This document shows, one piece after another, positions 8,622 to 29,886 of a stretch of DNA of 32,000 nt. Numbering within the stretch: position 1 is the stretch's first letter; the number at the start of each line of letters is the position of its first letter. This stretch comes from Geotalea daltonii FRC-32. GTDB lineage: Bacteria; Desulfobacterota; Desulfuromonadia; Geobacterales; Geobacteraceae. The DNA is taken from assembly GCF_000022265.1 (NCBI RefSeq), contig NC_011979.1, positions 360,001-392,000 on the forward strand. The letters are read 5' to 3'. The position numbers were made by a program, and so were the translations under genes. The notes under the pieces were generated by a model. It worked only from the letters and a program-made list of their open reading frames with translations. It searched no databases and was not told where the DNA came from.

Positions 8622-8723
8622 CTCACGGACGGTGGACCAAGAACCGGGCAACAGCCGCAACAGCTTGAAATGGCGTCCGTTGCTGCCATACTGTTCATAT
8701 AAAATATTCCTAAGGAGATGGTC

Positions 8724-10379: not shown

Positions 10380-10465
10380 CGAAAAAATAGGGGACGGTCC
10401 TTTCCTCGATTGAATTTTGCGTTATTATTTAATGCATTGTCATGATTATAAAACAGGAGGGACTG

Positions 10466-11928: not shown

Positions 11929-12330
11929 TTACAGCTGCTCGATGAGCTCTATCCCGCGGTGCTCCACTTCAATCAGCTCGATGACCACCTCGTGGCCCGA
12001 GGATTTCAGTTGAAGCCCTCTGACCTTGACCGGAAAGGCACTGCTGACTTGCCAGGCGGCAATTTTCTGATGGGTATCGTTGTGGAGAGTGATGCTGATG
12101 GTGCGGCGTTCGATGGTCTGGGGTTTGACACTGCACAGCCACTTGTAAAGATCGGTGCCGAAAGTGAGCATGCCGCTTGATAGAACCAGGTTAGCCGTCT
12201 GCAGTTTCAGCTTTTCCCGATCGTGGAGGGACAGGTCTTCCTGGTCAAGGGTAACCTGCGAAAATCCGGCAAAGATACCATGGCTCTCCACAAGGTATCT
12301 GAATTGGGGAAACGGCATTTCACCATCCAT
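11929..12330 (-). CDS. Orphan phage-tail-tube-fold protein (T4 gp19 / Afp1 / PVC1-like 'conserved phage tail region protein')
   Basis: 133 aa. By eye it aligns with contractile-injection tube proteins: FRYLVESHGIFAGFSQV (cf. F.VEIDGI.ia.FsevsG), LVLSSGMLTFGTDLYKWL (cf. itLkrGit.d..lw.W), RRTISITLHNDTHQKIAAWQVSSAFPVKVRGLQLKSSGHEVVIELIEVEHRGIEL (cf. g.I.l.d..g.e.arW.f.nAwP.k..gp.l.A.snevaiEel.l.hegle). Confidence 0.55.
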   Translation of the reverse strand: MDGEMPFPQFRYLVESHGIFAGFSQVTLDQEDLSLHDREKLKLQTANLVLSSGMLTFGTDLYKWLCSVKPQTIERRTISITLHNDTHQKIAAWQVSSAFPVKVRGLQLKSSGHEVVIELIEVEHRGIELIEQL

Positions 12331-12495: not shown

Positions 12496-12801
12496 ATGAA
12501 ACGAGCTGTTTTGATCATTCTGCTGTTGTCAATTGGTGCGTTGTCTGCGGTTGCATTTGCCGCAACGCCGAAAAATCCGGGTCCCGAGATCATCAATCTG
12601 AAAATGGGGGTGATGATACTGCCTTTTTCCCACAGGAAGCACCAACAGGACCTGAACAATGAATGCTTTCACTGCCATCCGAAAAAAACCGGCGGCAAGA
12701 TTGACAACTGGAACAAGGAAACTGCCCACCAAATCTGCATCAGCTGTCATGATCTGGAAGAAAAAGGACCAGTGGAATGCAAGCAGTGCCATAAGAAATA
12801 A
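12496..12801 (+). CDS. Triheme cytochrome c7 (PpcA family)
   Basis: AAAGGAGGG RBS and signal peptide ...SAVAFA. Three CxxCH motifs (CFHCH, CISCH, CKQCH). LPFSHRKHQQ...C..CH and the C-terminal GPVECKQCHKK closely parallel PpcA (FPHKAHQK...CKKCH ... GPTKCGECHKK). Confidence 0.85.
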   Translation: MKRAVLIILLLSIGALSAVAFAATPKNPGPEIINLKMGVMILPFSHRKHQQDLNNECFHCHPKKTGGKIDNWNKETAHQICISCHDLEEKGPVECKQCHKK

Positions 12802-15057: not shown

Positions 15058-15393
15058 ATGCTGAAAAAAATGACAAACATGGTTTTCCCCATGGTCCTCA
15101 TGCTGCAGGCCTGCTTATTCACATATGCCCATGCCGATGCTTCCGCCAGCCGAAAGAGTGCCATTCTGCAGCAGAGGGGTCCCATGCTGCAGAAGCATGC
15201 CTCTGCCGCCGTTGTGCCTGAAAGAACGGAAAACGGCATGCTGTATAAAGCAAATTGCGCCATCTGTCATGGACAGGCCAAACGTGGCCAAGCCAGCTCG
15301 CTGATCGAGAATGCCATCAGGAAAAACACCGGAGGAATGGGCTCGCTCAGGTTTCTGACCCAGGAGCAGATACGGACCATAGCTGATTTCTGA
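15058..15393 (+). CDS. Small secreted monoheme c-type cytochrome
   Basis: AAGGAG RBS lies 7 nt upstream. Signal peptide present. Single CAICH. The C-terminal domain YKANCAICHGQAKRGQASSLIENAIRKNTGGMGSLRFLTQEQIRTIADF is paralogous to the C-terminus of the 21816-22457 protein. Confidence 0.75.
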   Translation: MLKKMTNMVFPMVLMLQACLFTYAHADASASRKSAILQQRGPMLQKHASAAVVPERTENGMLYKANCAICHGQAKRGQASSLIENAIRKNTGGMGSLRFLTQEQIRTIADF

Positions 15394-15470: not shown

Positions 15471-17051
15471 ATGCGCCGAGATTGGCTGAAATTGCCACTC
15501 CCCATCATCATCCTGGTGCAACTGCTAAGCATTGACGGTCAGTGTGAAAGCCTTCCCCAAGAACTCAACCTTTCCCGCACGGATGCCATAAAAATGGCCA
15601 TAACTGGCAACATAGAGGTTCATAACGAATCTCTTTCCTCATTCATGGCAGAACTTGATTCCATCCGCAGCCGCAGCATTTACAACCCGCTACTGACACT
15701 TTCCGCAAACAGCGGCATAAATGCTTCACCGGGAGAGCCTTTTCGAACCAGAAACACCCAGACCACCATCGGACTTTCCCAGAACCTTCCCACCGGCGGA
15801 AGTATCTCCGTTACCACCCAGACCGGTTACGCTACCGCCGAATCGGAAGACCCGGAATTGACAAGCAGGAACTGGCAGACATCTCTGGGGCTTAACCTAA
15901 GTCAGCCGCTGTTACGCAACGCAGGCAGGGAAACGAACGAGTTTTCCATTTTTGCTGCCGACAGCAATCTACAGGATGCCGTGGAGAGGTTTCGCTCCAT
16001 CATTATCGATACCGTTCACGCCGTCGTCACGTCCTACAACCGTCTTTATACCCTGCGTCGGATTCTGGAGACGCGCAAGGCTGCCCTAGCTTCTGCTGAA
16101 ATGTTGCTTGAAGGTGTCAGGCAAAAGGTAACCCCGGAAACACCACTGGCCATGGAGGTGGCAGATGCCGATTTTGCCGTTGTCCAGCGTCGCAAGGAGC
16201 TGGTGGAGGCGGAACGCAATGTAAGGGACCATGAGGCAGGCTTCCGTTACCTTATCGGTCAGGAAGGGAAAGCCACCATAATCCCCGTTGATCCACCCTC
16301 CCGGGAGGAGCCGCAGGAGACGGAGGAACAGGCTGTAGTGGCTGCACTCGGTCTACGTCCCGAACTGCTGCAGTTGCAAATTTCATATAATGTGGCGCAG
16401 GTGCAGGAGCGCATCGCAAGGCGGCAGGCCTGGCCCGAGCTTTCCCTGACGGGTAGCGGCGGACTTAACGGCACTGGTGAGACTATGAGCAAAAACTGGA
16501 AGGAGATCATTGACGGCAGAAGACGATTTTGGACCGTCGGCATGCAGTTCAGCTATCCCATCGGCAATACGGCAGCCGTCAATGATTACCGCAGGAGCAA
16601 GATCAGGACCGAACAGTTGCTAAACCAGATCAGGTCGCTCAGCTGGAGGATCCGCAATGAGGTAGAGTCGGACATGCGGGCGTTGATTTCTGCCCGATTG
16701 CAGGTGCGGATGGCCGACATGTCCTTGAGGATAGCGGAGAAGCGTCTTGAAGAATACCGCAGGAACAATCAGGCCGGTACAAGCACAGTTCAGGATGTGA
16801 TCGATGCGCAAAACGATCTGACCTTTGCCAGAAATTCACAGGTGGATGCGGTAGAAACCTTTGCCAGCGCGGTGTCAAGGCTCTGGAGGGACATGGGCAC
16901 GCTTTTAGACCACCACGGCATTAAAATAGATGCTGAGCATGTGGGGAAAATAGCTGGAAAGACAGCCCTGAAAGAGGAATCGAAGCCGGAGGGGCTGGGC
17001 CTGCAACTACCCGACCTGGAATGGGCCATGGAAGCCTTCAGGGCCAAATAA
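15471..17051 (+). CDS. TolC-family outer membrane efflux/channel protein
   Basis: Signal peptide. Two-repeat OEP architecture with typical segments (LSRTDAIKMAITGNIEV, LGLNLSQPLLRNAGRE, RPELSLTGSGGLNG, VQDVIDAQNDLTFARNSQVDAV). Confidence 0.8.
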   Translation: MRRDWLKLPLPIIILVQLLSIDGQCESLPQELNLSRTDAIKMAITGNIEVHNESLSSFMAELDSIRSRSIYNPLLTLSANSGINASPGEPFRTRNTQTTIGLSQNLPTGGSISVTTQTGYATAESEDPELTSRNWQTSLGLNLSQPLLRNAGRETNEFSIFAADSNLQDAVERFRSIIIDTVHAVVTSYNRLYTLRRILETRKAALASAEMLLEGVRQKVTPETPLAMEVADADFAVVQRRKELVEAERNVRDHEAGFRYLIGQEGKATIIPVDPPSREEPQETEEQAVVAALGLRPELLQLQISYNVAQVQERIARRQAWPELSLTGSGGLNGTGETMSKNWKEIIDGRRRFWTVGMQFSYPIGNTAAVNDYRRSKIRTEQLLNQIRSLSWRIRNEVESDMRALISARLQVRMADMSLRIAEKRLEEYRRNNQAGTSTVQDVIDAQNDLTFARNSQVDAVETFASAVSRLWRDMGTLLDHHGIKIDAEHVGKIAGKTALKEESKPEGLGLQLPDLEWAMEAFRAK

Positions 17052-17065
17052 ATAATCAGGCTAAC

Positions 17066-18847
17066 ATGACAAAACCCGAAACCCACATGCCATCCCAGGC
17101 TGGATCCATATCGGCAGAGCCAAGCCGGGCGTGCTTCAGTCCCGGCAGGGAGGATGTCCTGATTATGGCCGCCATGGTCGTCATCTATCTGCTGATAGCA
17201 CTCCCTAATCTGGGCAGCTTCAAGGTGCCTGCCACCGTCTGGCAACCCTTGCGGAAGGGAGAATCACTGGTCCTTGATCTGGGGCGTGAGGTTCCCGTTT
17301 CCAGGATTTATTATTACTGCGGTATCAACGACAAGCGATTTCAGCAGACAAGCTTTTCCCTTGATTATGAAACAAAGGGCAGATTCCGCCCCTTGGCCCA
17401 TTTCGAAAAGAATGACTGCAATATCTGGAAGTTCCAGGACGCAGGCGTTACAACCTCCCGATTGCGGATAGTAGCGGATACTGCCGGCGGCGCCCTGAAC
17501 GAACTGGTCGTTCTGGAAAAGGGAGCGCAGGTCCCGCTGGCCGGGATGAGGATTTCGGCTCTTAACTCCGCCGGTACTGAACCGCAGCATCTGCTGGATG
17601 AGCAGTCTACCTTCGAAGCTGGCCCCTCCTTTATCAACGGGTTCTATTTCGATGAGGTATACCACGGCAGGACGGCCTACGAGCATCTGCAGCGGATGGA
17701 GCCTTACGAGAACACCCACCCCCCCCTGGGAAAACTGTTCATTGCTTCAGGCATAGCAGTTTTCGGCATGAACTCTTTCGGCTGGCGCATAGCAGGAACC
17801 CTGTTCGGTGCGGCACTGCTGCCGGTCATGTATCTTTTCGGCAGGAAGCTGTTCGGCAGGTCTTTTTTCGCTTTCTGCGCCGCTTTTCTGATGATGGTGG
17901 ACTTCATGCACTTCACCCAGTCGAGGATCGCACTGATCGACATTTTCGGCGTCTTCTTCATCACCGCGATGTATTATTTCATCCATGATTTCTACGTGAA
18001 CAGCTGCCCCATGGCTCCCATAAAAAAGAGCGCGGTCCCGTTGATCCTGGGTGGGGTTTGCTTCGGGCTCGGCGCAGCATCCAAGTGGATCGCCATCTAT
18101 GCCGGGGCAGGGCTGGCCCTGCTGGTGGCCCTGCAGCTCTTCCGCAGTTTCAGGAATTATCGGGGAGAACTCGGAACGCACCGCTTTTTCTGGTGTTACC
18201 TGTTGCCTGTCATCTGTGTCTGCCTGTTTTCCTTCCTGGTAATCCCGGCAATCATCTACCTTCTGTCCTACCTTCCCTATCTGATGGTTGAGGGGGAAAC
18301 GCACGGGTTCATGGACATACTGCGAAACCAGCTGGACATGTTCGACTACCACAGCGGGCTTAAGGCCACCCATCCGTTTTCTTCCCCCTGGTGGAGCTGG
18401 CCGCTTGATCTTCAGCCGGTCTGGTTTTACACCGCGTCCGGTCTTCTTCCCGGCCGGACCTCGACCATCGCATCTTTCGGTAATCCCGCCATCTGGTGGA
18501 CCGGTCTACCGGCAGTCATAGCCGCTGTCATCATTGCCGCCAGGAAGCGGGAGCGGCGGATGGCCGTCATCTTTACCGCCTTCGCCTTTCAGTATCTGCC
18601 GTGGATGTTCGTCACGCGGCTGACATTCATTTACCACTTCTTTTCAGCAGTGCCGTTCATGATCCTGTGTCAGGTATATGTAATCCAGCAGGCCATGGAG
18701 AGGTGGCCCAAGGCACGGTGGGCGGTCAGTGGCTATTTGACCGTTGCCGGACTGCTGTTCATTATCTTCTATCCTGCCCTGTCGGGAATGGAAGTCTCAA
18801 CGGACTATATCGACAGGCTGAGGTGGCTCAAAAGCTGGATATTCTAA
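17066..18847 (+). CDS. GT39 / PMT-family polyprenyl-phosphate-mannose:protein mannosyltransferase-like GT-C enzyme, with an extra N-terminal soluble domain
   Basis: The loop-1 DE motif and surroundings YFDEVYHGRTAYEHL...ENTHPPLGKL are diagnostic of PMT/GT39. More than 10 TM segments. A ~110-aa domain after TM1 (...VSRIYYYCG...SRLRIVADTAGGALNELVVLE) resembles a galactose-binding/discoidin-like fold. Start chosen at ATG 17066; track start 17021 overlaps the tolC-like gene. Confidence 0.75.
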   Translation: MTKPETHMPSQAGSISAEPSRACFSPGREDVLIMAAMVVIYLLIALPNLGSFKVPATVWQPLRKGESLVLDLGREVPVSRIYYYCGINDKRFQQTSFSLDYETKGRFRPLAHFEKNDCNIWKFQDAGVTTSRLRIVADTAGGALNELVVLEKGAQVPLAGMRISALNSAGTEPQHLLDEQSTFEAGPSFINGFYFDEVYHGRTAYEHLQRMEPYENTHPPLGKLFIASGIAVFGMNSFGWRIAGTLFGAALLPVMYLFGRKLFGRSFFAFCAAFLMMVDFMHFTQSRIALIDIFGVFFITAMYYFIHDFYVNSCPMAPIKKSAVPLILGGVCFGLGAASKWIAIYAGAGLALLVALQLFRSFRNYRGELGTHRFFWCYLLPVICVCLFSFLVIPAIIYLLSYLPYLMVEGETHGFMDILRNQLDMFDYHSGLKATHPFSSPWWSWPLDLQPVWFYTASGLLPGRTSTIASFGNPAIWWTGLPAVIAAVIIAARKRERRMAVIFTAFAFQYLPWMFVTRLTFIYHFFSAVPFMILCQVYVIQQAMERWPKARWAVSGYLTVAGLLFIIFYPALSGMEVSTDYIDRLRWLKSWIF

Positions 18848-18862: not shown

Positions 18863-19825
18863 ATGTCTGAAGCGACAAAGTTTTCAATCGTGGTGCCGGT
18901 GTTTAACGAAGAAAAAGTCCTTCCCGAGACCTACAGACGGCTCCATGAAGTGATGGAGGGGCTGAACGAGCCCTACGAGATTATCTTCGTCAACGACGGC
19001 AGCTCCGACCGCACCATGTTCATACTCGACAATATCTGCGAGCAGGATCGGCACATCAGGATTATCGACTTCGCCAAGAATTTCGGCCACCAGACTGCCA
19101 TCACCGCAGGGATGGACTATGCGGACGGCGACGCGGTAGTGGTCATCGATGCCGACCTTCAGGACCCGCCGGAACTGATACCGCAGATGATCGACCGCTG
19201 GCGGGAGGGGTATGACGTGGTCTACGGCAAGCGGAAAGAACGCAAGGGGGAAACCCTTTTCAAAAGGTTCTCGGCAGCCCTTTTTTATCGGCTGATGCGC
19301 AAAATGACCGATGTGGATATCCCCGTGGATACCGGCGACTTCAGGCTGATCGACCGCAGGGTCTGTGACGCCCTCAAATCCATCAAGGAGAGAAACCGCT
19401 ATATCAGGGGCATCATCAGCTGGCTCGGTTTCAGGCAGATCGGCGTGGAATTTTCCCGCGAGGAGCGCTTTGCCGGCGAGACCAAATACCCCATGAAGAA
19501 GATGCTCAAGTTCGCCTTCGACGCCATTACCTCCTTTTCCTTTAAGCCGCTGAAACTTTCATCCTACCTGGGGATGTCCCTGTCATTTTTCAGCTTCGTC
19601 TACCTGATGGTGGTGGTCTACCAGAAGTTCTTCACCGACCGGACCGTTGCCGGTTGGGCCTCCAGCATGGTCATCAGCCTCTTTTTCAACGGTATCGTGC
19701 TGATGATGCTGGGCATTGCCGGTGAGTACATCGGCAGGATCTATGACGAGACCAAGGGGAGACCCCTCTACGTGGTGCGCCGGGTTAGGAACTTCGCCGT
19801 GGAGAAGGACTGCCGGGGAAGGTAA
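18863..19825 (+). CDS. GT2 polyprenyl-phosphate sugar synthase (GtrB / Ppm1 / ArnC-like)
   Basis: GGAGG RBS. Motifs FSIVVPVFNEE, IIFVNDGSSD, VVIDADLQDPPE, GDFRLIDRR, and two C-terminal TM helices, the typical GtrB/DPM1 architecture. Confidence 0.85.
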   Translation: MSEATKFSIVVPVFNEEKVLPETYRRLHEVMEGLNEPYEIIFVNDGSSDRTMFILDNICEQDRHIRIIDFAKNFGHQTAITAGMDYADGDAVVVIDADLQDPPELIPQMIDRWREGYDVVYGKRKERKGETLFKRFSAALFYRLMRKMTDVDIPVDTGDFRLIDRRVCDALKSIKERNRYIRGIISWLGFRQIGVEFSREERFAGETKYPMKKMLKFAFDAITSFSFKPLKLSSYLGMSLSFFSFVYLMVVVYQKFFTDRTVAGWASSMVISLFFNGIVLMMLGIAGEYIGRIYDETKGRPLYVVRRVRNFAVEKDCRGR

Positions 19826-19833: not shown

Positions 19834-21168
19834 TCATTCCGGCAGCAATCGACCTTCCTGGTTCGACCAGCTTCTGGCTATGCATCGCAACATGTAAAGA
19901 AACAGCAGCAGGTTAGCCATGGAAGTGCCGAGCAACAGTGGATCATTTCCGGGTATATGGGTAATCCCTCGGGTGCTGGCAATCAGCACATGGACCACAT
20001 TAATGTAGTGAGTGATGCTGAAACCGGTGAAGATGACGAGCAGCTGCATGCTCCCCGCATAAAGAGCAGCCAGGAGGGCAAAGATCAGCACCGGAAACAG
20101 ATAACGTTCGTGCATTCTGGCGGAAAAGATGAAAACGGCGGCAATGATGAACATGCCCATCAGGTACAATCTTGTTTCTTCGCTGGCGCAGAAATAGACT
20201 CTGAAAGCGAAAAGGGTTGCCAGGACGATAAAGAGGGTGCCCCAGCTCCGATAAGGGAAAAACAGCCAGGAGGCTGTTTCATTCGTGAAATTCGCTCCGC
20301 TCAGGGCGAACAGGTTGTAGGCATTCACCGTTGCATACGGATAAGAAGTCAGGGTGGCCCTGTAATGGTCGAAGACCCACAGGGGCCCTTCCTCCAGGGC
20401 GAAAGGCGCTACGCCCACCATGAATACCAAACCGCCTGCCGCAGCAGCCACTAATATCCGGGTCCATATCCCGTTGACCGGCTGCAGGAGCAGCCGGTCA
20501 ACGGCCGAAGCGAGCAGCAGGGGGGTAAAGATAAGCGCTTGTGGTTTGATCAGCAGCGCGACGACGAACCAGCTGACGGAGGAAGCAAGGTGGTTTCCGG
20601 TGAGGAAGAAGATGGAGAGCACGATGAAGAGGGTAAAAACCGCATCCACCTGTCCCCACACCGCCGAATCGAGGATCACTGCCGGATTGAAGCCGTACAT
20701 GAGGGCGACGGCAAGAGCCGCTTTTTTGCCGAAACGCAGATTCGCCAACCGGTAAAGCAGAAATGTGGTGAGCATGTCGGCAATGATCGCCGGCAGTTTT
20801 ATAAGTGCCAGAAAACCTGAGCCTCCATCCGGCAGGTCCAGCAGTTCCTTTAGCTTTCCGATGAGAAACAGCACGTACATGTAGCCCGGCGGGTAATCGG
20901 CAAAGAACCCCCCGGAATAGAATCCGGACAGATTTTCGGCAGCTCGCACTGCCCAGGCCTGAAAGGTTTGCACGTCGCAGCTATAGCCTTCCATGGAGGC
21001 GGCCAGAAGCAGTCTGATCACCAGCATAGTTGCCATGGCGAGCCAGACAAGCCATGGTCTCGGTTTAACGTCCTGCGTGCCGCTGACATGGAAGGCGTAT
21101 TTCCCGCCGATGCTCATACCTAGGGCAAACAGTACCGGAACCAGCCCGAGCAGGAGAAGCGATGCCAT
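19834..21168 (-). CDS. GT-C superfamily integral membrane glycosyltransferase (Gpi18/ArnT-related, DUF2029-like)
   Basis: 444 aa with about 11 TM segments. The N-terminal periplasmic loop CDVQTFQAWAVRAAENLSGFYSGGFFADYPPGYMYVL is typical of COG5542-type mannosyltransferases. GAGGTG RBS. A 9-nt gap follows the upstream gtrA-like gene. Confidence 0.55.
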   Translation of the reverse strand: MASLLLLGLVPVLFALGMSIGGKYAFHVSGTQDVKPRPWLVWLAMATMLVIRLLLAASMEGYSCDVQTFQAWAVRAAENLSGFYSGGFFADYPPGYMYVLFLIGKLKELLDLPDGGSGFLALIKLPAIIADMLTTFLLYRLANLRFGKKAALAVALMYGFNPAVILDSAVWGQVDAVFTLFIVLSIFFLTGNHLASSVSWFVVALLIKPQALIFTPLLLASAVDRLLLQPVNGIWTRILVAAAAGGLVFMVGVAPFALEEGPLWVFDHYRATLTSYPYATVNAYNLFALSGANFTNETASWLFFPYRSWGTLFIVLATLFAFRVYFCASEETRLYLMGMFIIAAVFIFSARMHERYLFPVLIFALLAALYAGSMQLLVIFTGFSITHYINVVHVLIASTRGITHIPGNDPLLLGTSMANLLLFLYMLRCIARSWSNQEGRLLPE

Positions 21169-21177: not shown

Positions 21178-21624
21178 TCATGGGTCAATGGGCTTGGTCT
21201 CGGGCCTGAAGACCAGCTGCCTGCTGCCGAAGAAGCTAAACAGCATTGTCAGAATGGTTGCGGCGATCTTTGATGTCAGGAGAGAAAAGTTCAGCGTGGA
21301 ATGGAACAGATAGACGAGCAGCACCGATATTCCCAGGGCGGTCAGGCTGACCATGGCAAATCGTAGCATTTCTGCTGATTTGATGCCTGTCATGCCGAAA
21401 GTCCAGTATTTGTTGAAAAAATAGCTATTGGCAATGCCGCAGCTGTATGAGCAGGTCTGGGCCAGCAGGTAAGGCATGCCCAGCATGTCCAGGAGAAAGA
21501 ACAGGCTGAAATCCACTGTCGTATTGAGGATACCGACCAGGTTGAAGCGGGTCAATTGCCTCACTAATGTTGACAGTGTCTCAGGCTGCCTGCTTGAGAA
21601 TGCTTTCCCACCCTGTGCCCCCAT
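21178..21624 (-). CDS. GtrA-family small membrane protein (candidate polyprenyl-phosphate-sugar translocase)
   Basis: Four TM helices. LTRFNLVGILNTTVDFSLFFLL and NSYFFNKYWTF are GtrA signatures. Start is uncertain: ATG 21624 chosen, track gives TTG 21642. Confidence 0.75.
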   Translation of the reverse strand: MGAQGGKAFSSRQPETLSTLVRQLTRFNLVGILNTTVDFSLFFLLDMLGMPYLLAQTCSYSCGIANSYFFNKYWTFGMTGIKSAEMLRFAMVSLTALGISVLLVYLFHSTLNFSLLTSKIAATILTMLFSFFGSRQLVFRPETKPIDP

Positions 21625-21686
21625 TTTTAAACTATACCGCAACTTGGAAATGATACTATTTTAATATTATGTATTTAGAGCCACCC

Positions 21687-21714
21687 TTGACATGGAGTTG
21701 CCCGTCAGTAGAAT
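21687..21714 (+). promoter_or_regulatory. Sigma-70-type promoter for the Pro-Thr-rich cytochrome gene
   Basis: TTGACA (21687-21692), 16-bp spacer, TAGAAT (21709-21714). It predicts a ~95-nt leader before ATG 21816. Confidence 0.5.
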
Positions 21715-21815
21715 GCATAGTATGGGTATATTCTAATTTTGCCTGCAACTGAGGAAACCGACGACAATCGGAAGCACGGCGCTACGGGGCCTACTAAAAA
21801 AAGGAGGTACACAGC

Positions 21816-22457
21816 ATGCTGAGACTGAAGAAAACCCTGGCGATCCTGATATGCATGAGCTTCCTGCAATCAGGAGCAATGGCGGTGGCCAATGATGATG
21901 AAGATCGAGGTAAAGCTACAGGTGGCAGCACCTATGACCGTGATCGTGACAATGACCGGGACCGGGACAATGACCGGGAACGGGATGATGACCGAGACCG
22001 AGACAGGGATAAGAAAAAGGACCGACGTCATAGACCGCATAAGTCTCCGACACCAAGCCCAAAGCCAGTGGTAAGCCCGACACCAAAACCGAGTCCGACG
22101 CCAACACCGACGCCAACACCGACGCCAACGGCAACACCGACACCTAAACCAAGCCCGACACCAACTCCGACTCCAACGGCAACACCAACACCGGCACCAA
22201 CGGCAACACCAACACCGACACCAACACCGACACCGACACCGACACCGACACCTAAACCAACTCCGACTCCAACTCCAGCCGCCTCCGGTGCAACCCTTTA
22301 CCAGACCTACTGCTCAGGTTGCCATGGCTCACCGACAGGGAAAGGATGGAGTGCAAGCGCGATCCAGTCGGCCATAAACAACAACAGGGGTGGAATGGGC
22401 TTCCTTTCCACATTGACCTCAAGTCAAATCCAGGCGATTTCAACTGTAACCAAGTAA
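21816..22457 (+). CDS. Secreted monoheme c-type cytochrome with N-terminal Asp/Arg alternating tract and long Pro-Thr linker
   Basis: AGGAGG RBS. Signal peptide ending AMA|[35 protein letters not shown] (residues 41-73). A ~78-residue (S/T)P tract (residues 77-154). C-terminal [10 protein letters not shown]...[22 protein letters not shown] heme domain. Confidence 0.85.
21936..22034 (+). repeat. Coding low-complexity repeat encoding the alternating Asp-Arg tract
   Basis: Imperfect tandem copies of gacaatgaccggga(c/a)cggga and gaccgaga(c). They translate to an (D-R)n polyampholyte. Confidence 0.8.
22044..22277 (+). repeat. Coding microsatellite-like repeat (acaccgac/acgccaac units) encoding the (Thr-Pro)n linker
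   Basis: Runs of ACN-CCN dicodons. By my count the translation has about 28 Thr and 5 Ser, alternating with Pro. Confidence 0.85.
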
Positions 22458-22474
22458 GAGGATCCGGGGAAAGC

Positions 22475-22505
22475 AACGGGGCTCCTGCCAGAGCCCCGTT
22501 TTTTA
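22475..22505 (+). terminator. Rho-independent terminator after the PT-rich cytochrome gene
   Basis: 10-bp GC-rich stem aacggggctc/gagccccgtt (22475-22484 pairs with 22491-22500), loop ctgcca, T-run to 22505. Confidence 0.75.
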
Positions 22506-22585
22506 TTTGTTCCGGTTGTATGACGCGTTGACAGCTACCACTAACCTCATGGTCCTCAAGGTCAGGCAACTGCAGGTCTGTTCCA

Positions 22586-23977
22586 TCAGCTCTTTCCTGC
22601 TGCCTTGATCTCGAAGATGCGAACCAGACCCGGGGTCAGTTTTACCTTTTCCAGCGTTTTGCCGTTATACGACCTGAACGGCAACGGCGAGCCGTCCAGG
22701 GCATATTCCACGACCGCCGATCCCGGTCGGGGATGGAGCCGCAGCGTCGGTTCTCCCTTCTTGTCCCAGACAAAGAGGACCTGGCTTCCATCGGGCCTGA
22801 CGAAGAGGTGGCTGTACAGTTCCACCTTTTTCCCGCTGGTAACCTCAACCTTCAGTTCCCGGTCGGCAATGGTCAAGTTGCCCACATCGAGCAGGCCGAT
22901 CAGGCGTTTGATGGTGAAGAACGCCATTTTTCGCGTTCTGTCGGGACGACTGATACCAAGGTAATAGTTTTCCCCCCCGCCGATGACCGTTTCGGACTGT
23001 TTGCGCTCCTTGATCTGATAGATACCCAGATGTTCCACCCGGGGGGAAGCCAGGAATGTGGCGAAGGCCCGTGCCCACCAGTTAGCCTGGTCGGTTTCGC
23101 TTTTCCCCGGCGTGTTGGCGAAGCCGGCCTCATTGATCCAGATCGGCTTTCTGCCGCAGTACTGGTCGGCCCAAGGGATGAAGGTGCCCTGGAAATGATT
23201 GGGGTAACCCTGGTCAAGATAGTTTTCCAGCACGATATTCTTTTCCGTCCAGGTCTCAGGATAGGCATGGAAGGGAAGAATGTGAAAGCTGTCGCCGCTG
23301 CCGTACTCGTCACAGGCTGCTTTGACCCAGTCGGCGTCGGGGTAGACCATGCCGCCAAAGATAACCGGCTTGGTCCGGTCGCTGCTGCGTATGGCCTCAG
23401 CCCCTTTCTGCAGTACCTGGTTATACTGCTCCGCCGTGCCGTCCCACCACTGTCGCACGTTTTCCTCATTGTAAATTTCGTAGGAGAGGATGTTCTTTTG
23501 GCTGGCCAGGGCACCGCTAAGGTGTGAAACGAAATTGCTCCAGTCCTGGAGCCGGGCCGGAGGGTCGTTCCAGGCTTCCTTGTCGGTTCCTCCCCCTGCA
23601 GCCCATGGAGCGGTATAACCGATGTAGGGGCGCAGGCTCATGCCATGTTGCGTAGCGAGCTCGACAAACTGGCGCAGCCACTTGAAATCGTACTGCCCCT
23701 GAGCAGGTTCGTAATCACCCCAAGCCAGGCTTCCCCTCCAGGTGGTCAGCCCCAGTTCCTTCATCAGCCTGAAGTCCTTCGCCACCTCCTCCAGGTCTTC
23801 CCCCTTTACGTAATCCTGCAGGATGCTGAATGAAACCGGCTTGGTGAATGCTTGAGCGGCGCCGGCAGCAGTAGTGCTTCCACCACCGGCAGTGCCATGG
23901 GCGCCCATGGGGTGGTGACAGCAGGCGCTGGAGAACAGCAGAAACAATGAGACTACAACAGTCGTCACTTTTTGCAT
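22586..23977 (-). CDS. Clan GH-A (beta/alpha)8 glycoside hydrolase, probable lipoprotein (GH5/GH39/GH42-like; family not resolved)
   Basis: GAGGTG lies 5 nt before ATG 23977. Signal/lipobox-like LLFSSACC. Motifs TWRGSLAWGDYEPAQGQYDF, acid/base candidate YEIYNEEN, nucleophile candidate PIWINEAGF. C-terminal beta-sandwich-like tail. Confidence 0.65.
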   Translation of the reverse strand: MQKVTTVVVSLFLLFSSACCHHPMGAHGTAGGGSTTAAGAAQAFTKPVSFSILQDYVKGEDLEEVAKDFRLMKELGLTTWRGSLAWGDYEPAQGQYDFKWLRQFVELATQHGMSLRPYIGYTAPWAAGGGTDKEAWNDPPARLQDWSNFVSHLSGALASQKNILSYEIYNEENVRQWWDGTAEQYNQVLQKGAEAIRSSDRTKPVIFGGMVYPDADWVKAACDEYGSGDSFHILPFHAYPETWTEKNIVLENYLDQGYPNHFQGTFIPWADQYCGRKPIWINEAGFANTPGKSETDQANWWARAFATFLASPRVEHLGIYQIKERKQSETVIGGGENYYLGISRPDRTRKMAFFTIKRLIGLLDVGNLTIADRELKVEVTSGKKVELYSHLFVRPDGSQVLFVWDKKGEPTLRLHPRPGSAVVEYALDGSPLPFRSYNGKTLEKVKLTPGLVRIFEIKAAGKS

Positions 23978-24109
23978 CTCATCACCTCGGCATTTTATTG
24001 GCATCAATAAGTTAAAGTATAGCAGAGACTAAAGGCGGCGCTGCTGTTACTGCTACCTGCGTGACGGGGCTCACTTCCTTCGTGACGGGATTCCTGCAGA
24101 CTGTCGGGT

Positions 24110-25924: not shown

Positions 25925-25948
25925 GAGAAATTTACCTGTTGAAGCACG

Positions 25949-25984
25949 AAAAAGGGACCGGCCATATGGAGGGTCCTTTTTTTT
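25949..25984 (+). terminator. Rho-independent terminator after the ABC exporter gene
   Basis: The aaaaagggacc / ggtcctttttt stem has one G-U pair, followed by T8. Confidence 0.6.
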
Positions 25985-26131
25985 ATGACCACAACATTAA
26001 TTCTGTAAAAAAATTAATAGAAAACCACAAGTGAACATGAATAGAAAGTCTTGAAAGGGTGATGGTTGGCATTTGCCGGGGGGGCGAAGGACCCCCTTGC
26101 AAAAGTGGGTTATGTGAGATGAGGAATGAGA

Positions 26132-26443
26132 TTAACCCCAATAAGCTTTATCGTGGGGACCTAGGGCAATAAATTTGAGAGTATCGTCTGGGCATTGCTG
26201 ACAATCGGCACAGAGAACGATAGCATCATCACCTTTTTTCCGGCAAATCGAGCAGTACAGATAAATGATCAGAAAATTTCGACGAACAGAGCAACTGTAA
26301 TAACCCCGGAAATTTCCTTTAAGGGGTTCACCCAAAGAAATCGGATTTGCGGTGATCATGTCAATTTTTTTACGGACGACATCCTTTATTGCGTTATGTT
26401 TTTTAAGTGATGTGACGAAATCATCACTAAACATGAGGTTCAT
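26132..26443 (-). CDS. RelE/ParE-superfamily type II toxin with an internal Cys-rich insertion
   Basis: LGEPLKGNFRGYYSCSVRRNFLIIY ... LKFIALGPHDKAY matches the RelE/ParE core. CSICRKKGDDAIVLCADCQQC is inserted between the strands. ATGA overlap with the upstream antitoxin gene. Confidence 0.65.
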   Translation of the reverse strand: MNLMFSDDFVTSLKKHNAIKDVVRKKIDMITANPISLGEPLKGNFRGYYSCSVRRNFLIIYLYCSICRKKGDDAIVLCADCQQCPDDTLKFIALGPHDKAYWG

Positions 26444-26694
26444 TTAAATACCTCATCATAACTTTGCCATTTGACAGCACCTGATTTGATCCGTGTAATT
26501 GTCTCAATGAGGGAATCAGTGAAATCCGGATCGCTCAAAATTATTTCAGTAGGATCGTTTTCCTTGAGACGCTTCAATTTCAGGGCAAATTGGGTAAAAA
26601 CCTCGGAGACGGTCGTTCTCTGGCTTTCCGCATATTCTTTGACAAACTCAATCAGATCACTATCAAGGGTGAGATTGATTCGGGCTTTTTGCAT
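26440..26694 (-). CDS. Ribbon-helix-helix-type antitoxin
   Basis: N-terminal KARINLTLDSDLIEFVKEYAESQRTTVSEVF (beta-strand plus two helices). 84 aa. Translationally coupled to the downstream toxin. Confidence 0.65.
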   Translation of the reverse strand: MQKARINLTLDSDLIEFVKEYAESQRTTVSEVFTQFALKLKRLKENDPTEIILSDPDFTDSLIETITRIKSGAVKWQSYDEVFK

Positions 26695-26807
26695 GGCACA
26701 CCTCCTGTGAGTATATTATGCGTATATCATGCTCATTGTCAAGATGGTAGTCAAGAGTTGCATGGTTTGTCTACTGGAGACACCAAATCCCTACTTATGA
26801 ATTATTC

Positions 26808-26923
26808 TATCATTGCAGTGATATTTTAGATTCAAAAACGCTTAAAAGAGTTATTAATATCACTGCAGTGATATTAATGTTGCATCAAGGCATATTTTCA
26901 ATTATTGTAGCACTGCAATAGTA
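26808..26923. promoter_or_regulatory. Three phased palindromic operator candidates in the hipBA / relBE-like divergent control region
   Basis: TATCATTGCAGTGATA (26808-26823). ATATCACTGCAGTGATAT (26857-26874, a perfect 18-bp palindrome). TAGCACTGCAATAGTA (26908-26923). Centres are exactly 50 bp apart, and each site is preceded by a related A/T-rich flank (ATTATTC, TTATTAA, ATTATTG). Confidence 0.6.
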
Positions 26924-26944
26924 TTATAGAGTGTAAAACTCACG

Positions 26945-27214
26945 ATGGAGCAGAGTATGCGAAGAGTAATAATGCGGTCCCCTGTCCCAGAATCCCAGCC
27001 ACTGCTTGATGCGGAGACTCTCGGTATCTTCGTACGTGCAAGTCGCACCAAGACAGGTATGGGAATCCATGAGGCAGCCGCTTTTTGTGGTGTGGCTGTA
27101 GGCACCATGCAGAAGATAGAGAAAGCCAGCGGCGATGTTAAGTTGAGTTCAATCCTGACTGTCTGCAAGATGCTTGGAATATCACTTACTATCGGCAGCA
27201 GGGTAAACTCATGA
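26945..27214 (+). CDS. hipB: HipB-like XRE-family HTH antitoxin/repressor
   Basis: HTH LGIFVRASRTKTGMGIHEAAAFCGVAVGTMQKIEKASGDVKLSSILTVCKMLGISL. ATGA overlap with hipA. Confidence 0.8.
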   Translation: MEQSMRRVIMRSPVPESQPLLDAETLGIFVRASRTKTGMGIHEAAAFCGVAVGTMQKIEKASGDVKLSSILTVCKMLGISLTIGSRVNS

Positions 27215-28509
27215 CAGAAACCCTCCTGACCTACCTGGATGGCATCTATCTCGGAAAGATCATTCTCGATGGACCATTTGAGGCTTATGGCCTGGAATAT
27301 GACGAAACCTGGATTGGGGGCGGAGGATTTCCGATCTCTCCACACCTGCAGTTTCACAAATCGCCTGATGATTCTGTCAGGCGTTTTCTTTCCAACCTCC
27401 TCCCTGAAGGGAGATGGCTTGAGGAATTGTCGTCATCTTCACATATTTCCAAGTCAAACACCTTTGGGTTGATCGCCGCAATCGGATCTGAAACTACCGG
27501 GGCACTCACCTTTCGTATTGGTGGTGAAGGGAGCGAGACAAACACGACTAATTTCCGGCCAATCGAGACACAGGAACTGGAGGAAAGAATTCGGGAGCGC
27601 AATGATAGGCCTATTAGTCTCTGGGACGGCAAGCAACGGCTTTCAACTGCAGGAGTGCAGGATAAATTACCCGTAATGATTATGCCGGATGGCACTTTTG
27701 GCTTTGGCGAAGGAGATCTCGCCTCAACCCACATCCTAAAATTCGATACCAAGCAAAACATACATCTTGTACTCAATGAATTTATTTGTATGACACTTGC
27801 TCACCTGGCCGGTTTACCTGCGGCCAACGTCAAGTTTGTGAGGATGGGGGAGCCGGTCCTGGTGGTGGAGCGCTTTGACAGAAAGTGGAGTGGTGACGAG
27901 TCGATTAAGCGTCTGCATCTGATCGATGGATGCCAGATGCTGGATTTGCTGCCAACATACAAATATGAGAGGCCGTTCGGCAAAACCGGACATGCTGCTG
28001 GATTGAGGACTGGCGCATCGTTGCAAATGTTATTTGATTCTGCCAAATCATGCAGAGTCCCTGCGCTGACGATGAGGGACATGTTGAACTGGACATTGTT
28101 TCAATTATTGATCGGCAACAGCGATGCTCATGCGAAAAATATTTCCTTTTTCCTTGGAAAAGAAGGAATTGACCTTGCACCGGCATACGACCTGGTCTGT
28201 CTAGATGTCTGCGGTGATCAGTATGATCGGAATATCGCGATGGCAATCGGCGACGTCTTCGACCCTGACGATATTCAGGCATGGCAGCTGGCAGAGATGT
28301 GTTTTGAGTGCAAGTTGCCACAACGTCAGACAGCCCGGATGCTCGACTCGCTCTGTAACAACATACTTCGCTCGTTGACGAAAATCTCTCTACCGGAACT
28401 TCTTACGCCTATTGAAGAAGAGTTTGCGCGGAATTTAATCCAGGTAATTACAAACAAGGTTCATAGATATCAGGAATATGCGAAGCAGTTACCAGGATTA
28501 AAAATATAG
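27211..28509 (+). CDS. hipA: HipA-family serine/threonine kinase toxin
   Basis: Couple_hipA N-domain. LSTAGVQDKLPV motif. Catalytic loop IGNSDAHAKNISF. APAYDLV. 432 aa. Confidence 0.85.
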   Translation: MTETLLTYLDGIYLGKIILDGPFEAYGLEYDETWIGGGGFPISPHLQFHKSPDDSVRRFLSNLLPEGRWLEELSSSSHISKSNTFGLIAAIGSETTGALTFRIGGEGSETNTTNFRPIETQELEERIRERNDRPISLWDGKQRLSTAGVQDKLPVMIMPDGTFGFGEGDLASTHILKFDTKQNIHLVLNEFICMTLAHLAGLPAANVKFVRMGEPVLVVERFDRKWSGDESIKRLHLIDGCQMLDLLPTYKYERPFGKTGHAAGLRTGASLQMLFDSAKSCRVPALTMRDMLNWTLFQLLIGNSDAHAKNISFFLGKEGIDLAPAYDLVCLDVCGDQYDRNIAMAIGDVFDPDDIQAWQLAEMCFECKLPQRQTARMLDSLCNNILRSLTKISLPELLTPIEEEFARNLIQVITNKVHRYQEYAKQLPGLKI

Positions 28510-28641
28510 AATAAAATGGAGATGAAGCACCGCCATTCCGGAAAGCCAGAGATGGCAGCAAGTTTAATTTTGTCATGTGCAGGTCTTGACCCTTAATGTG
28601 ATACTGTGTCCACATGACGTTGCCCTTCGAGGAAGTGAAAA

Positions 28642-29232
28642 ATGTACAATATCAGGCTGAGAACAAGGATGATTTTTCTGGCCGTTACGCTTGCTGCGTT
28701 ATGCCCGGCAATATTGTCTGCCGCAGAGAAGGCTTCGCAGACTGCCACATCTCTGGTGAACCTCGTGAAGCCGCACGAGAGAGAAGCGCAGGCGATCCGC
28801 TTCATGCTGGTGGTCGCACCGATGGGTTTTCCTGAGGGGCTTGCTGACTGCATGGTGGCGAAGACGACACCGGCTATCAAGGACTATTTTGCTGCGCTGT
28901 ATGCTGCCCACCTGAGTGAAACCGAACTACGGCAAGCTGTTGATTTCTTCAAAGGAGAAGACGGCCGGGCAGCTGTTGCATTTCGTCTGCAGCACGAACA
29001 GAACCTGCTCAATGCATCAGCCAAGGGGGAGCAGATCACGAATGAGCATCCCGAATATCCACTGCAGATAAGGAAGGCGCTTGAAGCTTTTAGTGCTACG
29101 CCTGCAGGACGACACTTCGTTGGAGACGAACTTGAGGCGCGGCAGCCATTCGCTTCCGAAATTTCGGAATTGCGCAACGCCGGAATGGCCCAATGTTTAG
29201 CGGACCTCTCGGTCGGTGTCGGCAATCGGTAG
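28642..29232 (+). CDS. Secreted protein of unknown function (possibly DUF2059-like)
   Basis: GAGGAAG RBS. Signal peptide ...ILSAAEK. The segment YFAALYAAHLSETELRQAVDFFKGEDGRAAV resembles the DUF2059 core (F..eEL..l..Fy.s..G). Confidence 0.45.
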   Translation: MYNIRLRTRMIFLAVTLAALCPAILSAAEKASQTATSLVNLVKPHEREAQAIRFMLVVAPMGFPEGLADCMVAKTTPAIKDYFAALYAAHLSETELRQAVDFFKGEDGRAAVAFRLQHEQNLLNASAKGEQITNEHPEYPLQIRKALEAFSATPAGRHFVGDELEARQPFASEISELRNAGMAQCLADLSVGVGNR

Positions 29233-29301
29233 TCTCGGGTCTCGTAAGTTTCTGCCGGAGATTGCCCCGGAAGTGGCAAAACAAACGAGACGATAGCAGG
29301 C

Positions 29302-29317
29302 TGGCACCGCTGCTGCG
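29302..29317 (+). promoter_or_regulatory. Candidate sigma-54 promoter upstream of the VOC-family gene
   Basis: TGGCACcgctgCTGCG with correct GG/GC spacing, about 31 nt upstream of ATG 29348. This could be a chance match. Confidence 0.3.
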
Positions 29318-29347
29318 TCCCCAGTCCCGGAACATAGAGGCAAAAAA

Positions 29348-29767
29348 ATGAAACCGCGCATAAACATGATTACTCTGGGTGTTGGGGATATGGAAAAGGC
29401 GGCTGCCTTCTACGAAAGAGGTCTCGGCCTGCCGCGAATGCCTTTTGAAGGAGGAGCGGCCTTCTTCATGCTAAACGGGTCATGGCTGTCATTGTATCCA
29501 TTGAATGCACTTGCTGAAGATGCCACCGTAGCAGCTAATGGGACAGGTTTCCGAGGCATTGCATTGGCTCATGTTGTTTCCAGCAGAGAGGATGTGGATG
29601 AAGTTCTGAATCAAGCGGTCAAGGCTGGCGGAACCTTAATCAAGCCTGCGGCTGACGTCTTCTGGGGTGGGTACTCCGGGTATTTTGCCGACCCTGATGG
29701 GCATTTGTGGGAGGTGGCCTGGAATCCTCATTTTTGGCCGGGTCCCACAGACTGCGATGAAGCATGA
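29348..29767 (+). CDS. VOC-family (glyoxalase/bleomycin-resistance/dioxygenase fold) protein
   Basis: N-terminal INMITLGVGDMEKAAAFYERGLGL and C-terminal GGYSGYFADPDGHLWEVAWNP are typical of this fold. Confidence 0.8.
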   Translation: MKPRINMITLGVGDMEKAAAFYERGLGLPRMPFEGGAAFFMLNGSWLSLYPLNALAEDATVAANGTGFRGIALAHVVSSREDVDEVLNQAVKAGGTLIKPAADVFWGGYSGYFADPDGHLWEVAWNPHFWPGPTDCDEA

Positions 29768-29886
29768 GGAAACTGCTTGTGGGGGTGAACCCGCACAGGA
29801 GGGAGCGAAATGCACCGGGGCAAATTGCATTCGCGGGGAAAAACATGCCCAGGCTGTTTGGCCGTTTAAAGCCCAGGTGTCCGGCC

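Follow-up and report, generated by a model that had tools for sequence, protein, structure and literature searches.

A one-heme PgcA-type cytochrome on a Thr-Pro tether, linked to a putative O-glycosylation module in Geotalea daltonii

Introduction

The cytB gene of Geotalea daltonii FRC-32 encodes a small cytochrome c in which a string of 78 residues, made mainly of Thr and Pro, precedes a single heme domain, and it lies beside genes encoding glycosyltransferases. This locus raises the question of whether the string is a substrate of these enzymes and of the family to which such a cytochrome belongs. The window considered here is a stretch of 32,000 nucleotides (NC_011979.1, positions 360,001 to 392,000), in which cytB extends from 21816 to 22457 on the forward strand; all coordinates are those of the window. 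We propose that CytB is a PgcA-type tethered cytochrome with an O-glycosylated Thr-rich string, a full statement to which we give a probability of about 0.55; its cytochrome and tether part alone, in which CytB is taken as a PgcA-type cytochrome that is exported and carries one heme on a long, flexible tether, is very highly probable. The host belongs to the Geobacterales and is a metal-reducing diderm; an actinobacterial host was considered and rejected, the heme domain being 100% identical to that of Geotalea toluenoxydans.

Architecture of the cytB gene and its product

The first-pass annotation, made from the DNA letters of the window, had read cytB as a cytochrome with a D/R tract and a 78-residue (Thr-Pro)n linker, under a near-consensus promoter of its own and 173 bp from a divergent gtrA. 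Inspection bears out this layout for the 213-residue open reading frame (ORF), which begins with ATG, down to the counts of 28 T and 5 S in the tract, and likewise the promoter and the divergent neighbor. The features are as follows.

21687-21714, + strand: predicted sigma-70-type promoter, TTGACA-16-TAGAAT, matching at 11 of 12 positions
21803-21807, + strand: ribosome-binding site GGAGG, 8 nt 5' of the cytB ATG, as read from the sequence
21816-21890, + strand: signal peptide, residues 1-25 (n-region KK, 19-residue hydrophobic stretch, AXA site)
21891-21935, + strand: acidic N terminus NDDED and G[AK]ATGGST motif, residues 26-40, from alignment
21936-22034, + strand: alternating D/R polyampholyte tract, residues 41-73, from composition and repeat finding
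22044-22277, + strand: (Thr/Ser-Pro)n tether, residues 77-154, from composition and repeat finding
22278-22454, + strand: PgcA-type heme domain, residues 155-213 (59 residues), from homology to solved structures and Pfam PF13442
22475-22500, + strand: hairpin of an intrinsic terminator (10-bp stem, 7 GC pairs), then TTTTATTTGT, the T-run reaching 22510

Both promoter hexamers (-35 and -10) are kept in three related genomes (L003, L004 and Pelotalea L082), and AAAAGGAGG at the ribosome-binding site is kept in the orthologs. Throughout the text, loci carry such numbers: L003 is G. toluenoxydans JCM 15764, L005 Geotalea sp. SG265, L082 Pelotalea chapellei and L083 Geobacter sp. SVR; L024 is a metagenome-assembled genome (MAG) of the Geobacteraceae, and L009 and L072 are Anaeromyxobacteraceae MAGs. 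Because it has its own promoter and a strong terminator hairpin, cytB looks monocistronic. The gap to the divergent gtrA measures 173 bp with a TTG start for the latter (ORF end at 21642) and 191 bp with the ATG start of the public gene calls. A protein identical to CytB is present on two Logan contigs, and none was found by exact-sequence look-up in the cluster collection searched.

Signal peptidase I would probably cleave CytB at AVA|N, after residue 25, leaving a mature protein of 188 residues and about 19.9 kDa. No canonical lipobox ([LVI][ASTVI][GAS]C) was found in CytB, as Cys13 has Ile at -1 and lies within the hydrophobic region, and a lipoprotein reading was discarded since this invariant Cys stands outside a lipobox context. 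Neither this Cys (codon at 21852-21854) nor the G[AK]ATGGST motif (GKATGGST in CytB, 21909-21932) changes within Geotalea and L007; Pelotalea and Geobacter sp. SVR have variants. Residues G32, A34, T35, G36, G37, S38 and T39 are invariant in six orthologs or paralogs, again with variants in the latter two lineages.

The acid/base tract (residues 41-71, 31 residues) comprises 14 D, 11 R, 3 K, 2 N and 1 E, with opposite charges in 21 of 30 adjacent residue pairs, and basic residues HRPHK (72-76) follow. The 78-residue tether contains 35 P, 28 T, 5 S, 4 K, 4 A and 2 V, hence 33 Ser/Thr; Pro and non-Pro residues alternate over 90% of it, and it would span about 24 nm if fully extended. At the DNA level, Tandem Repeats Finder detects a period of 18 in four copies in the D/R tract and periods of 6, 12 and 18 in the PT tract, all imperfect (71-79% matches). 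A single-sequence AlphaFold2 model of CytB was unusable (predicted local distance difference test score 53, predicted template-modeling score 0.20).

The heme domain is of the PgcA type

The C-terminal domain of CytB has the features of the PgcA-type heme domain, i.e. about 60 residues, an N-terminal CXXCH and a distal Met within GGMG...L(S/T)...Q(I/V)QAI. Its CSGCH motif corresponds to residues 166-170 (22311-22325), and Met194 (22395-22397), in GGMG, is the putative distal ligand. The Pfam profile Cytochrome_CBB3 (PF13442) matches with 29.6 bits (cut-off 27), and a search of the PDB with the heme domain returned 8QJG (60% identity, E = 3e-14) and 8QJ6 (E = 7e-11), both entries being named 'Lipoprotein cytochrome c'. 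These structures are domains II and I, respectively, of PgcA from G. sulfurreducens (PMC11520253). Since the 13-residue stretch around the Met ligand is the same in CytB and PgcA domain II, His170 and Met194 would be the axial ligands of the CytB heme, by alignment to His365 and Met392 of the latter (PMC11520253). CytB has a shortened loop in which the counterpart of Asp372 of PgcA domain II is absent. Furthermore, the columns G, LY, C..CHG, AI, N, GGMG and L are invariant among CytB and 21 family domains. An exhaustive profile-free search identified the domain in 872 cluster representatives, for the most part lipoproteins in which short linkers join 2-19 copies of the domain; such a search was needed, a word-indexed homolog search with the heme domain having returned the PgcA domain II construct only.

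PgcA is an extracellular triheme cytochrome composed of three one-heme domains with (PT)x repeats between them (PMC10570954, PMC11520253), and it is required for Fe(III) oxide reduction (PMC5732950). It was put forward as the first of the 'heme-tethered redox strings', the flexible tethers of which reach about 180 Å (PMC10570954, PMC11520253), and its (PT)x-tethered, freely moving heme domains are documented (PMC5732950, PMC10570954, PMC11520253). As CytB is homologous to this published protein, a PT tether before a CXXCH domain is an already known feature. The rigid stalk that the first-pass annotation had imagined is not borne out for the unmodified chain, the (PT)x linkers of PgcA being flexible by small-angle X-ray scattering and nuclear magnetic resonance (PMC11520253).

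CytB falls outside the PgcA family proper, for which at least two heme domains joined through low-complexity (PT)x or (PA)x tethers are required: it has one CXXCH and one domain, and its (PT)n tether connects the heme domain to the charged head and not to another heme domain. The lipobox and the N-terminal non-heme 'secretion' domain of the PgcA type are absent from CytB, in which 51 residues lie between signal peptide and tether. The leader lacks the GEMM-I (cyclic dinucleotide) riboswitch to which pgcA owes its name, since no Rfam element, GEMM-I included, matched in 21600-22600 at the gathering threshold or at E <= 10; moreover, its predicted fold is at the level of shuffled sequence (z = 0.01), with no significant fold or covariation. 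One-heme PgcA homologs had already been mentioned for G. metallireducens (PMC5732950).

A predicted glycosylation set encoded beside cytB

The genes that surround cytB are listed below.

15058-15393, + strand: cytA, a second PgcA-type one-heme cytochrome (111 residues, CAICH, GGMG, no Pro-rich linker)
15471-17051, + strand: TolC-like outer-membrane protein (OEP; Pfam OEP 4.6e-39; TIGR01844 1e-34, below cut-off)
17021-18847, + strand: protein O-mannosyltransferase (PMT) homolog of family GT39 (Pfam PMT, PF02366, 4.6e-17; PMT_4TMC, PF16192, 1.2e-22)
18863-19825, + strand: GT2 polyprenyl-phosphate-sugar synthase (Pfam Glycos_transf_2 4e-38)
19834-21168, - strand: second GT-C glycosyltransferase, 444 residues, PMT_2/GT87-like (Pfam PMT_2 29 bits)
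21178-21642, - strand: GtrA-family protein, divergent from cytB (Pfam GtrA_DPMS_TM 2.7e-26)
22586-24007, - strand: GH5-like glycoside hydrolase, convergent with cytB (Pfam Cellulase, Glyco_hydro_42)

The PMT homolog, the likely start of which is at 17165 (called gene of 560 residues), belongs to GT39 by its PMT and PMT_4TMC domains and its catalytic Asp-Glu motif, which in this family belongs to the first periplasmic/luminal loop. Indeed, its FDEVYHG and HPPLGK segments align with FDEVHFG and HPPFAK of yeast Pmt4 (catalytic DE loop), and D163, E164, H185, P186, P187, L188, G189 and K190 are invariant in 18 homologs. The best NCBIfam matches of the GT2 protein are PgfS (296 bits, 2.6e-88) and ArnC (198 bits), both below cut-off, and the GtrA-family protein would act as a flippase, as its family suggests. 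GT2, GtrA flippase and GT-C are thus encoded together, as in Gtr-like three-component systems. Taken together, PMT, GT2, second GT-C and GtrA are predicted to make up a full set for periplasmic glycosylation by way of a lipid carrier, two transferases included. This supports the earlier view of the flanking genes as a PMT-type glycosylation set, on the basis of the PMT/PMT_4TMC domains, the FDEV motif, the GT2, the PMT_2-type GT-C and GtrA.

Most PMT homologs of this clade (P0161-P0260) are 800-1060 residues long and carry an N-terminal extension, some with F5/8 type C or CBM_4_9 domains; this extension may be a periplasmic carbohydrate- or substrate-binding module. The enzyme of the window is a short form. 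The GH5-like hydrolase was rejected as a core member of the locus, as it adjoins the cluster in the Geotalea group only: L003-L005 have it, and L082, L083 and L024 lack it here. The cytA gene lies 77 bp upstream of the OEP gene, a place also taken by its counterparts in L004, L005 and Pelotalea L082 (85 residues).

Tethered cytochrome and glycosylation genes stay linked

Conservation of the linkage was assessed in both directions. In the forward test, from the cytochrome domain (79 loci, flanks of +/-10 kb), a PMT gene was found within the flanks in L003, L004, L005, L024 and L009. The order in L024 is cytochrome, OEP, PMT and GT2, followed by GT-C and GtrA on the other strand. In L009, a PgcA-like lipoprotein with four hemes and PT/PA linkers precedes a single GT-C-PMT fusion of 1064 residues (2111-5305) and then a GT2; this fusion suggests that GT-C and PMT would act together, and a GT-C homolog lies directly upstream of PMT in most metagenome loci.

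The reverse test, started from PMT homologs, led back to cytochromes of the same layout. In L082, the order is PMT, GT2, GT-C, GtrA, a 179-residue CytB ortholog with a DR tract, the 85-residue cytA-like gene and OEP; L083 has this order with a CytB ortholog of 141 residues. In L084 and L085, a tethered cytochrome with a DR/EK tract lies directly upstream of PMT and an OEP-SPOR protein is found at the opposite end, and the arrangement of L088 equals that of L024. L086 carries a Big_2 lipoprotein in place of the cytochrome, and the low-GC loci L087, L089 and L090 are likewise without cytochrome. A metagenome scan by PMT alignment yielded mainly distant, low-GC lineages; its sole close relative, L092, has an 11-heme PT-rich cytochrome beside GtrA. 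PMT, GT2, GT-C and GtrA occur together in L004, L005, L024, L082-L086, L088 and L092.

Outside the Geotalea group, at least eight loci therefore keep cytochrome and module together in differing gene order, and the linkage is spread over Geotalea, Pelotalea, Geobacter sp. SVR, several Desulfuromonadales-type contigs and one Anaeromyxobacteraceae MAG (Myxococcota). The PMT/GT-C module is general, and its association with a cytochrome is specific to one clade (Geobacterales/Desulfuromonadales-type) and was met once in Myxococcota.

The OEP gene follows a pattern of its own. OEP orthologs (44-55% identity) stand beside tethered cytochromes in L010, L013, L024, L034, L042 and L059, and this OEP subfamily is encoded directly downstream of tethered one-heme cytochromes, L088 included, with a C-terminal SPOR-like extension in L084 and L085. 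As five loci (L010, L013, L034, L042 and L059) have the OEP-cytochrome pair without any PMT, this pair is the commoner core.

A screen for PT-rich ORFs near PMT modules was positive in 8 of 89 loci, a number from which no enrichment is claimed, the background rate being not established. On low-GC or gut/bioreactor contigs (L147:400-2415, L159:5539-7437, L161, L169:3703-5838 and L170), PT-rich secreted proteins are encoded 1-3 kb from GT-C/PMT. Two of the three PT-rich proteins scanned match the pAdhesive_15 ice-binding-like adhesin domain, and such adhesin-like proteins may be the glycosylation substrates in lineages without cytochrome.

A one-heme subfamily with a charged head

CytB is a member of a coherent group of small one-heme proteins (141-245 residues), drawn from the 79 genomic loci encoding the domain and from the loci reached from the PMT side. 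Members with the same layout were found in L003-L005, L007 (a and b), L010, L024, L034, L042 (a and b), L059, L082, L083, L084, L085 and L088. They have a signal peptide of the signal peptidase I type, an acidic start (ADDD, ADSD or ADED), an acid/base tract, a Pro-rich linker and a C-terminal heme domain. Besides G. toluenoxydans, the heme domain of CytB is conserved in a MAG (80% identity), Geotalea sp. SG265 (72%), Geobacter sp. SVR (69%) and Pelotalea chapellei (65%).

The acid/base tract is of the DR type in CytB and Pelotalea, DK and DR in L007, ER in L005, EK in L010 and L034, and GDR in L042 and L084. Nothing comparable was found among the top 150 family representatives outside the subfamily, the only related feature being an acidic D/N run in P0078. 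The D/R tract, which the first-pass annotation had singled out as a rarity, is thus one version of an acid/base tract (DR, DK, ER, EK) conserved throughout the subfamily. The Pro-rich linker is 35-111 residues long (15 and less repetitive in L083), and its chemistry varies freely from PT to PTA/TPRPTA, PTPV and nearly pure PA. The branch formed by Geotalea, Pelotalea, SVR and L007 keeps the G[AK]ATGGST motif and the Cys within the signal peptide; the other branch likewise has a Cys at a similar position of the signal peptide (SVC[SA]ISSLL). In a PgcA-like lipoprotein with four hemes (L072:9035-10621), poly-glycine runs of 7-13 G replace the PT linkers, and the available flank holds no PMT.

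The repeats also vary in length between strains. The DNA around cytB is 92-97% identical to that of strain JCM 15764, and the signal peptide and heme domain are identical as protein, with synonymous changes only in the latter. In the D/R and PT tracts, two in-frame deletions of 12 nt and several shifts of register separate the two strains, so that the proteins count 205 residues vs 213, repeat lengths to be taken with some caution for the JCM 15764 draft. Indeed, its LMF1, GT-C and PMT homologs give split or partial tblastn matches, which suggests frameshift errors or pseudogenes. Other CytB orthologs have 244, 188, 179 and 141 residues. The proposal that the repeat DNA is a hot spot of length variation is borne out by these differences between strains and orthologs.

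Is the tether glycosylated?

That the cytochrome and the glycosylation genes stay linked is most readily explained if the Thr-rich string is O-glycosylated. To our knowledge, GT39 enzymes are known solely as protein O-mannosyltransferases (CAZy family). In Actinobacteria, they add up to 65 hexoses to the 69-residue S/T-rich linker of a secreted cellulase (PMC11727336). Ser and Thr make up 26-46% of each of the 10 PMT-linked linkers, and Thr-free (PA)n linkers occur in PMT-unlinked loci only. We consider the functional coupling of CytB to the TolC-like protein and to the glycosylation module as well supported, and glycosylation of the tether as a well-supported hypothesis, not a finding, which offers the most economical reading of the linkage. 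One to three hexoses on each of the 33 Ser/Thr of the linker would add 5-16 kDa to the 19.9-kDa mature protein and hence provide a clear read-out.

Several observations weigh against this reading. The relation between Ser+Thr content of the linker and PMT linkage is a trend only (Mann-Whitney p = 0.08, with samples that are not independent). A (PA)n linker is found in L034 and L042, and the linkers of L007, L010 and L059 are rich in Thr with no PMT in the vicinity; the linker thus works as a spacer with or without sugar. Moreover, no PMT lies within +/-10 kb of about 60 multi-heme homologs, many of them with PT linkers. The first-pass annotation had held that PT-tract homologs without linked PMT/GT2 genes would speak against glycosylation, and taken literally its expectation fails; we regard this as a weak refutation, as the enzyme could be encoded elsewhere in the genome. 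The PMT/GT-C pair is also widespread in distant, low-GC lineages of the metagenome scan with no cytochrome nearby. The PMT of the window scores 98 bits for the NCBIfam equivalog NF058602, the cut-off of which is 800, and is thus a distant homolog of the characterized bacterial Pmt. Since the GT2 is of the GtrB/ArnC/PgfS type, lipopolysaccharide (LPS) or some other glycan could serve as acceptor, and a sugar other than mannose could be transferred. Furthermore, the studies on PgcA make no mention of glycosylation (PMC5732950, PMC10570954, PMC11520253), and no report of glycosylated PgcA-type proteins or of a Geobacter PMT was found in the open-access/bioRxiv full-text literature. Finally, PgcA migrates at 57 and 41 kDa whether native or made in Shewanella (PMC5732950), and these equal sizes disfavor heavy glycosylation of PgcA itself.

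An alternative that we find rather unlikely is that the PT tract is an unmodified flexible linker and that the module glycosylates LPS, exopolysaccharide, OEP or other envelope proteins, the genes being kept together by a shared envelope/extracellular electron-transfer program. It agrees with the recombinant unglycosylated PgcA being fully functional, with flexible linkers (PMC11520253, PMC10570954), and with the same apparent sizes of the native and Shewanella-made protein (PMC5732950). The (PA)n linkers of L034 and L042, which show that hydroxyl groups are dispensable, the many lineages in which the PMT/GT-C pair occurs without cytochromes, the closeness of the GT2 to enzymes that also serve non-protein acceptors and the adjoining GH5 hydrolase in Geotalea, typical of polysaccharide loci, point in the same direction. 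Such a bare linker is harder to reconcile with the GT39 family being known solely for protein O-mannosylation and with a linkage that outlasts repeated shuffling of gene order across Geotalea, Pelotalea, SVR, Desulfuromonadales-type contigs and Anaeromyxobacteraceae. In every case, the linked partner is a protein with a long segment rich in Thr and Pro, the classical acceptor of GT39 enzymes (PMC11727336).

Glycosylated or not, the string might also belong to a periplasmic bridge, in which an uncleaved signal anchor holds CytB in the inner membrane and the string of about 24 nm sweeps the heme through the periplasm, between quinol oxidases of the inner membrane and partners in the outer membrane, the TolC-like protein among them. 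CytB has no lipobox or other anchor domain, its extended linker is on the scale of the Gram-negative periplasm, the hydrophobic stretch counts 19 residues, and the Cys is invariant in six aligned orthologs or paralogs and present in other subfamily members, all of which would suit this arrangement. Yet the good AXA site (AVA|N) with its acidic stretch is typical of signal peptidase I substrates and PgcA relatives occur outside the cell (PMC5732950); we consider a bridge very unlikely. A last reading would make cytB an artefact, either a fortuitous frame in repeat DNA, which does give rise to long ORFs on both strands, or a pseudogene of low complexity. The conservation data rule it out and its probability is practically nil: the gene has a promoter, a ribosome-binding site and a terminator, its heme domain shares 60% identity with a solved structure and changes only synonymously between strains at 96% nucleotide identity, and orthologs exist in at least five genera-level lineages.

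Proposed mechanism

Retaining an O-glycosylated string as the preferred reading, we infer a working model that covers signal cleavage, localization, glycosylation and its sugar, and the role of the OEP. In this model, cytB would form a transcription unit by itself, bounded by its promoter and terminator, and its product would be exported by Sec, the signal peptide probably being cut after AVA25. Heme would be attached at C166 and C169, with His170 and Met194 as axial ligands by homology to PgcA domain II. The mature protein would consist of a 51-residue acidic/polyampholyte head, a 78-residue Thr/Ser-Pro string of about 24 nm and, at the far end, a 6-kDa heme domain which would exchange electrons by tethered diffusion, as shown for PgcA. 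O-glycosylation of the string would take place on the periplasmic side, where GT2 would load the lipid carrier, GtrA flip it, PMT start the glycan on Thr/Ser of the string and the second GT-C extend it; with these sugars, the tether would become stiffer, longer and better protected. Anchoring or export of CytB would fall to the TolC-like partner.

A bolder and quite unlikely proposal is that the conserved set of tethered one-heme cytochrome(s), dedicated TolC-like protein and GT39/GT-C/GT2/GtrA serves Geobacterales and some Myxococcota as a so far unrecognized device for electron transfer at the cell surface. PMT-type protein O-glycosylation would then be seen at work in a diderm for the first time, building a mucin-like, heme-bearing glyco-stalk, which the TolC-like trimer would export or else hold, perhaps threaded through its channel. 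The tunnel of TolC is about 14 nm long, and the CytB tether (about 24 nm) is longer. If true, such a device would be a new trans-outer-membrane conduit, distinct from porin-cytochrome complexes and from cytochrome nanowires.

Other genes of the window

A membrane protein of the lipase-maturation-factor (LMF1) family (13286-14737, - strand) and a PIG-V-like mannosyltransferase (29887-31146, - strand) flank the cluster in the Geotalea group only, so that three GT-C-type enzymes are encoded within 15 kb. The segment of about 4 kb between an ABC transporter and the PIG-V-like GT-C (25925-29886) includes a stretch of low GC content (0.40 at 26-27 kb), the hipA toxin gene (27211-28509) and genes of DUF6364 and DUF2059; it looks like an inserted island, because in Geotalea sp. 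SG265 (L005) the ABC transporter gene directly adjoins the PIG-V-like one.

Upstream of the cluster, a hybrid-cluster protein (Prismane, 8718-10379) is followed by a multi-heme cytochrome of 494 residues with c554/MtrC-like matches (10442-11926), and a separate triheme cytochrome c7 of the PpcA type, 101 residues long, is encoded at 12496-12801. An isolated ORF of 133 residues (11929-12330, - strand) matches the T4 gp19 tail tube (PF06841, 2.6e-17), and no other phage or contractile genes are found nearby. Genes on the + strand at 3214-8621, which resemble 3-dehydroquinate synthase, TatD (weak), a xylose-isomerase TIM barrel (weak), type I phosphodiesterase/nucleotide pyrophosphatase and UbiA prenyltransferase, possibly form a pathway for an unusual prenylated or cyclitol compound.

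Significance

Prokaryotic protein O-mannosylation has been studied in Actinobacteria only (PMC11727336), and a working PMT-type system in cultivable Geobacterales, with a heme-stainable substrate, would widen this field. Glycosylation, if true, could explain how long Pro/Thr strings survive sediment proteases. A new class of extracellular electron-transfer proteins, the tethered-heme cytochromes, was put forward in 2023-2024, and the locus bears on their anchoring, export and protection outside the cell. Three leads come from it: a one-heme form reduced to the minimum, the charged head of which is conserved; a TolC-like partner of its own; and a GT39 module, likewise conserved, beside Thr-rich tethers. 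Should the string be unglycosylated, a new subfamily is still defined, in which linker composition (PT, PTA, PTPV, PA) and length evolve freely while head and heme domain are kept. The PT tether and the PgcA-type domain are already known; the one-heme charged-head subfamily with its conserved GT39/TolC-like context appears new, no description of it having been found in the open-access/bioRxiv literature searched.

Comparison with known systems

CytB shares with PgcA (GSU1761 of G. sulfurreducens; PDB 8QJ6, 8QJG and 8QK0) the heme domain of about 60 residues with CXXCH and GGMG Met and the PTx-CXXCH module, in which a long (PT)n directly precedes the domain, and both are found in Geobacterales. 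It differs by its single heme instead of three, by the absence of a lipobox and of the N-terminal 'secretion domain' of about 195 residues, in place of which it has an acidic head, the G[AK]ATGGST motif and an alternating D/R tract, and by a locus in which no GEMM-I riboswitch was found. Furthermore, cytB is linked to a TolC-like protein and a GT39 module, which most multi-heme PgcA homologs lack. OmcF (GSU2432 of G. sulfurreducens), a one-heme c6-like outer-membrane lipoprotein cited as a structural homolog of the PgcA domains (PMC10570954), resembles CytB as a small one-heme His/Met cytochrome of Geobacter. Unlike CytB, this lipoprotein has a fourth helix and lacks a long tether, and it gave no sequence match to the CytB domain in the PDB search at E <= 1.

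On the side of the enzymes, actinobacterial O-mannosylation (GT39 Pmt and Ppm1 of Mycobacterium, Corynebacterium and Cellulomonas; PMC11727336) has in common with the cytB locus a GT39 enzyme with its DE motif, a GT2 lipid-carrier synthase and a Sec-exported candidate acceptor, here CytB with its 78-residue S/T/P linker. The differences are that the host of cytB is a diderm member of the Geobacterales, that the module adds GtrA and a second GT-C, that its GT2 is of the GtrB/ArnC/PgfS type and not clearly Ppm1, and that its PMT lies far below the NCBIfam equivalog cut-off.

Gtr systems comprise a GtrA flippase, a GtrB GT2 and a GtrC-type GT-C, and they modify the O-antigen and not protein. The Pgf system of Streptococcus mutans (PgfS/PgfM1/PgfE/PgfM2) glycosylates the Thr-rich repeats of the adhesin Cnm, the gene of which adjoins those of the enzymes; it belongs to a monoderm and has no GT39 enzyme. 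The cytB locus follows the same logic of GT2, flippase and GT-C, with PgfS as the best NCBIfam match of its GT2, and it differs from both in having two GT-C enzymes, one of which belongs to GT39.

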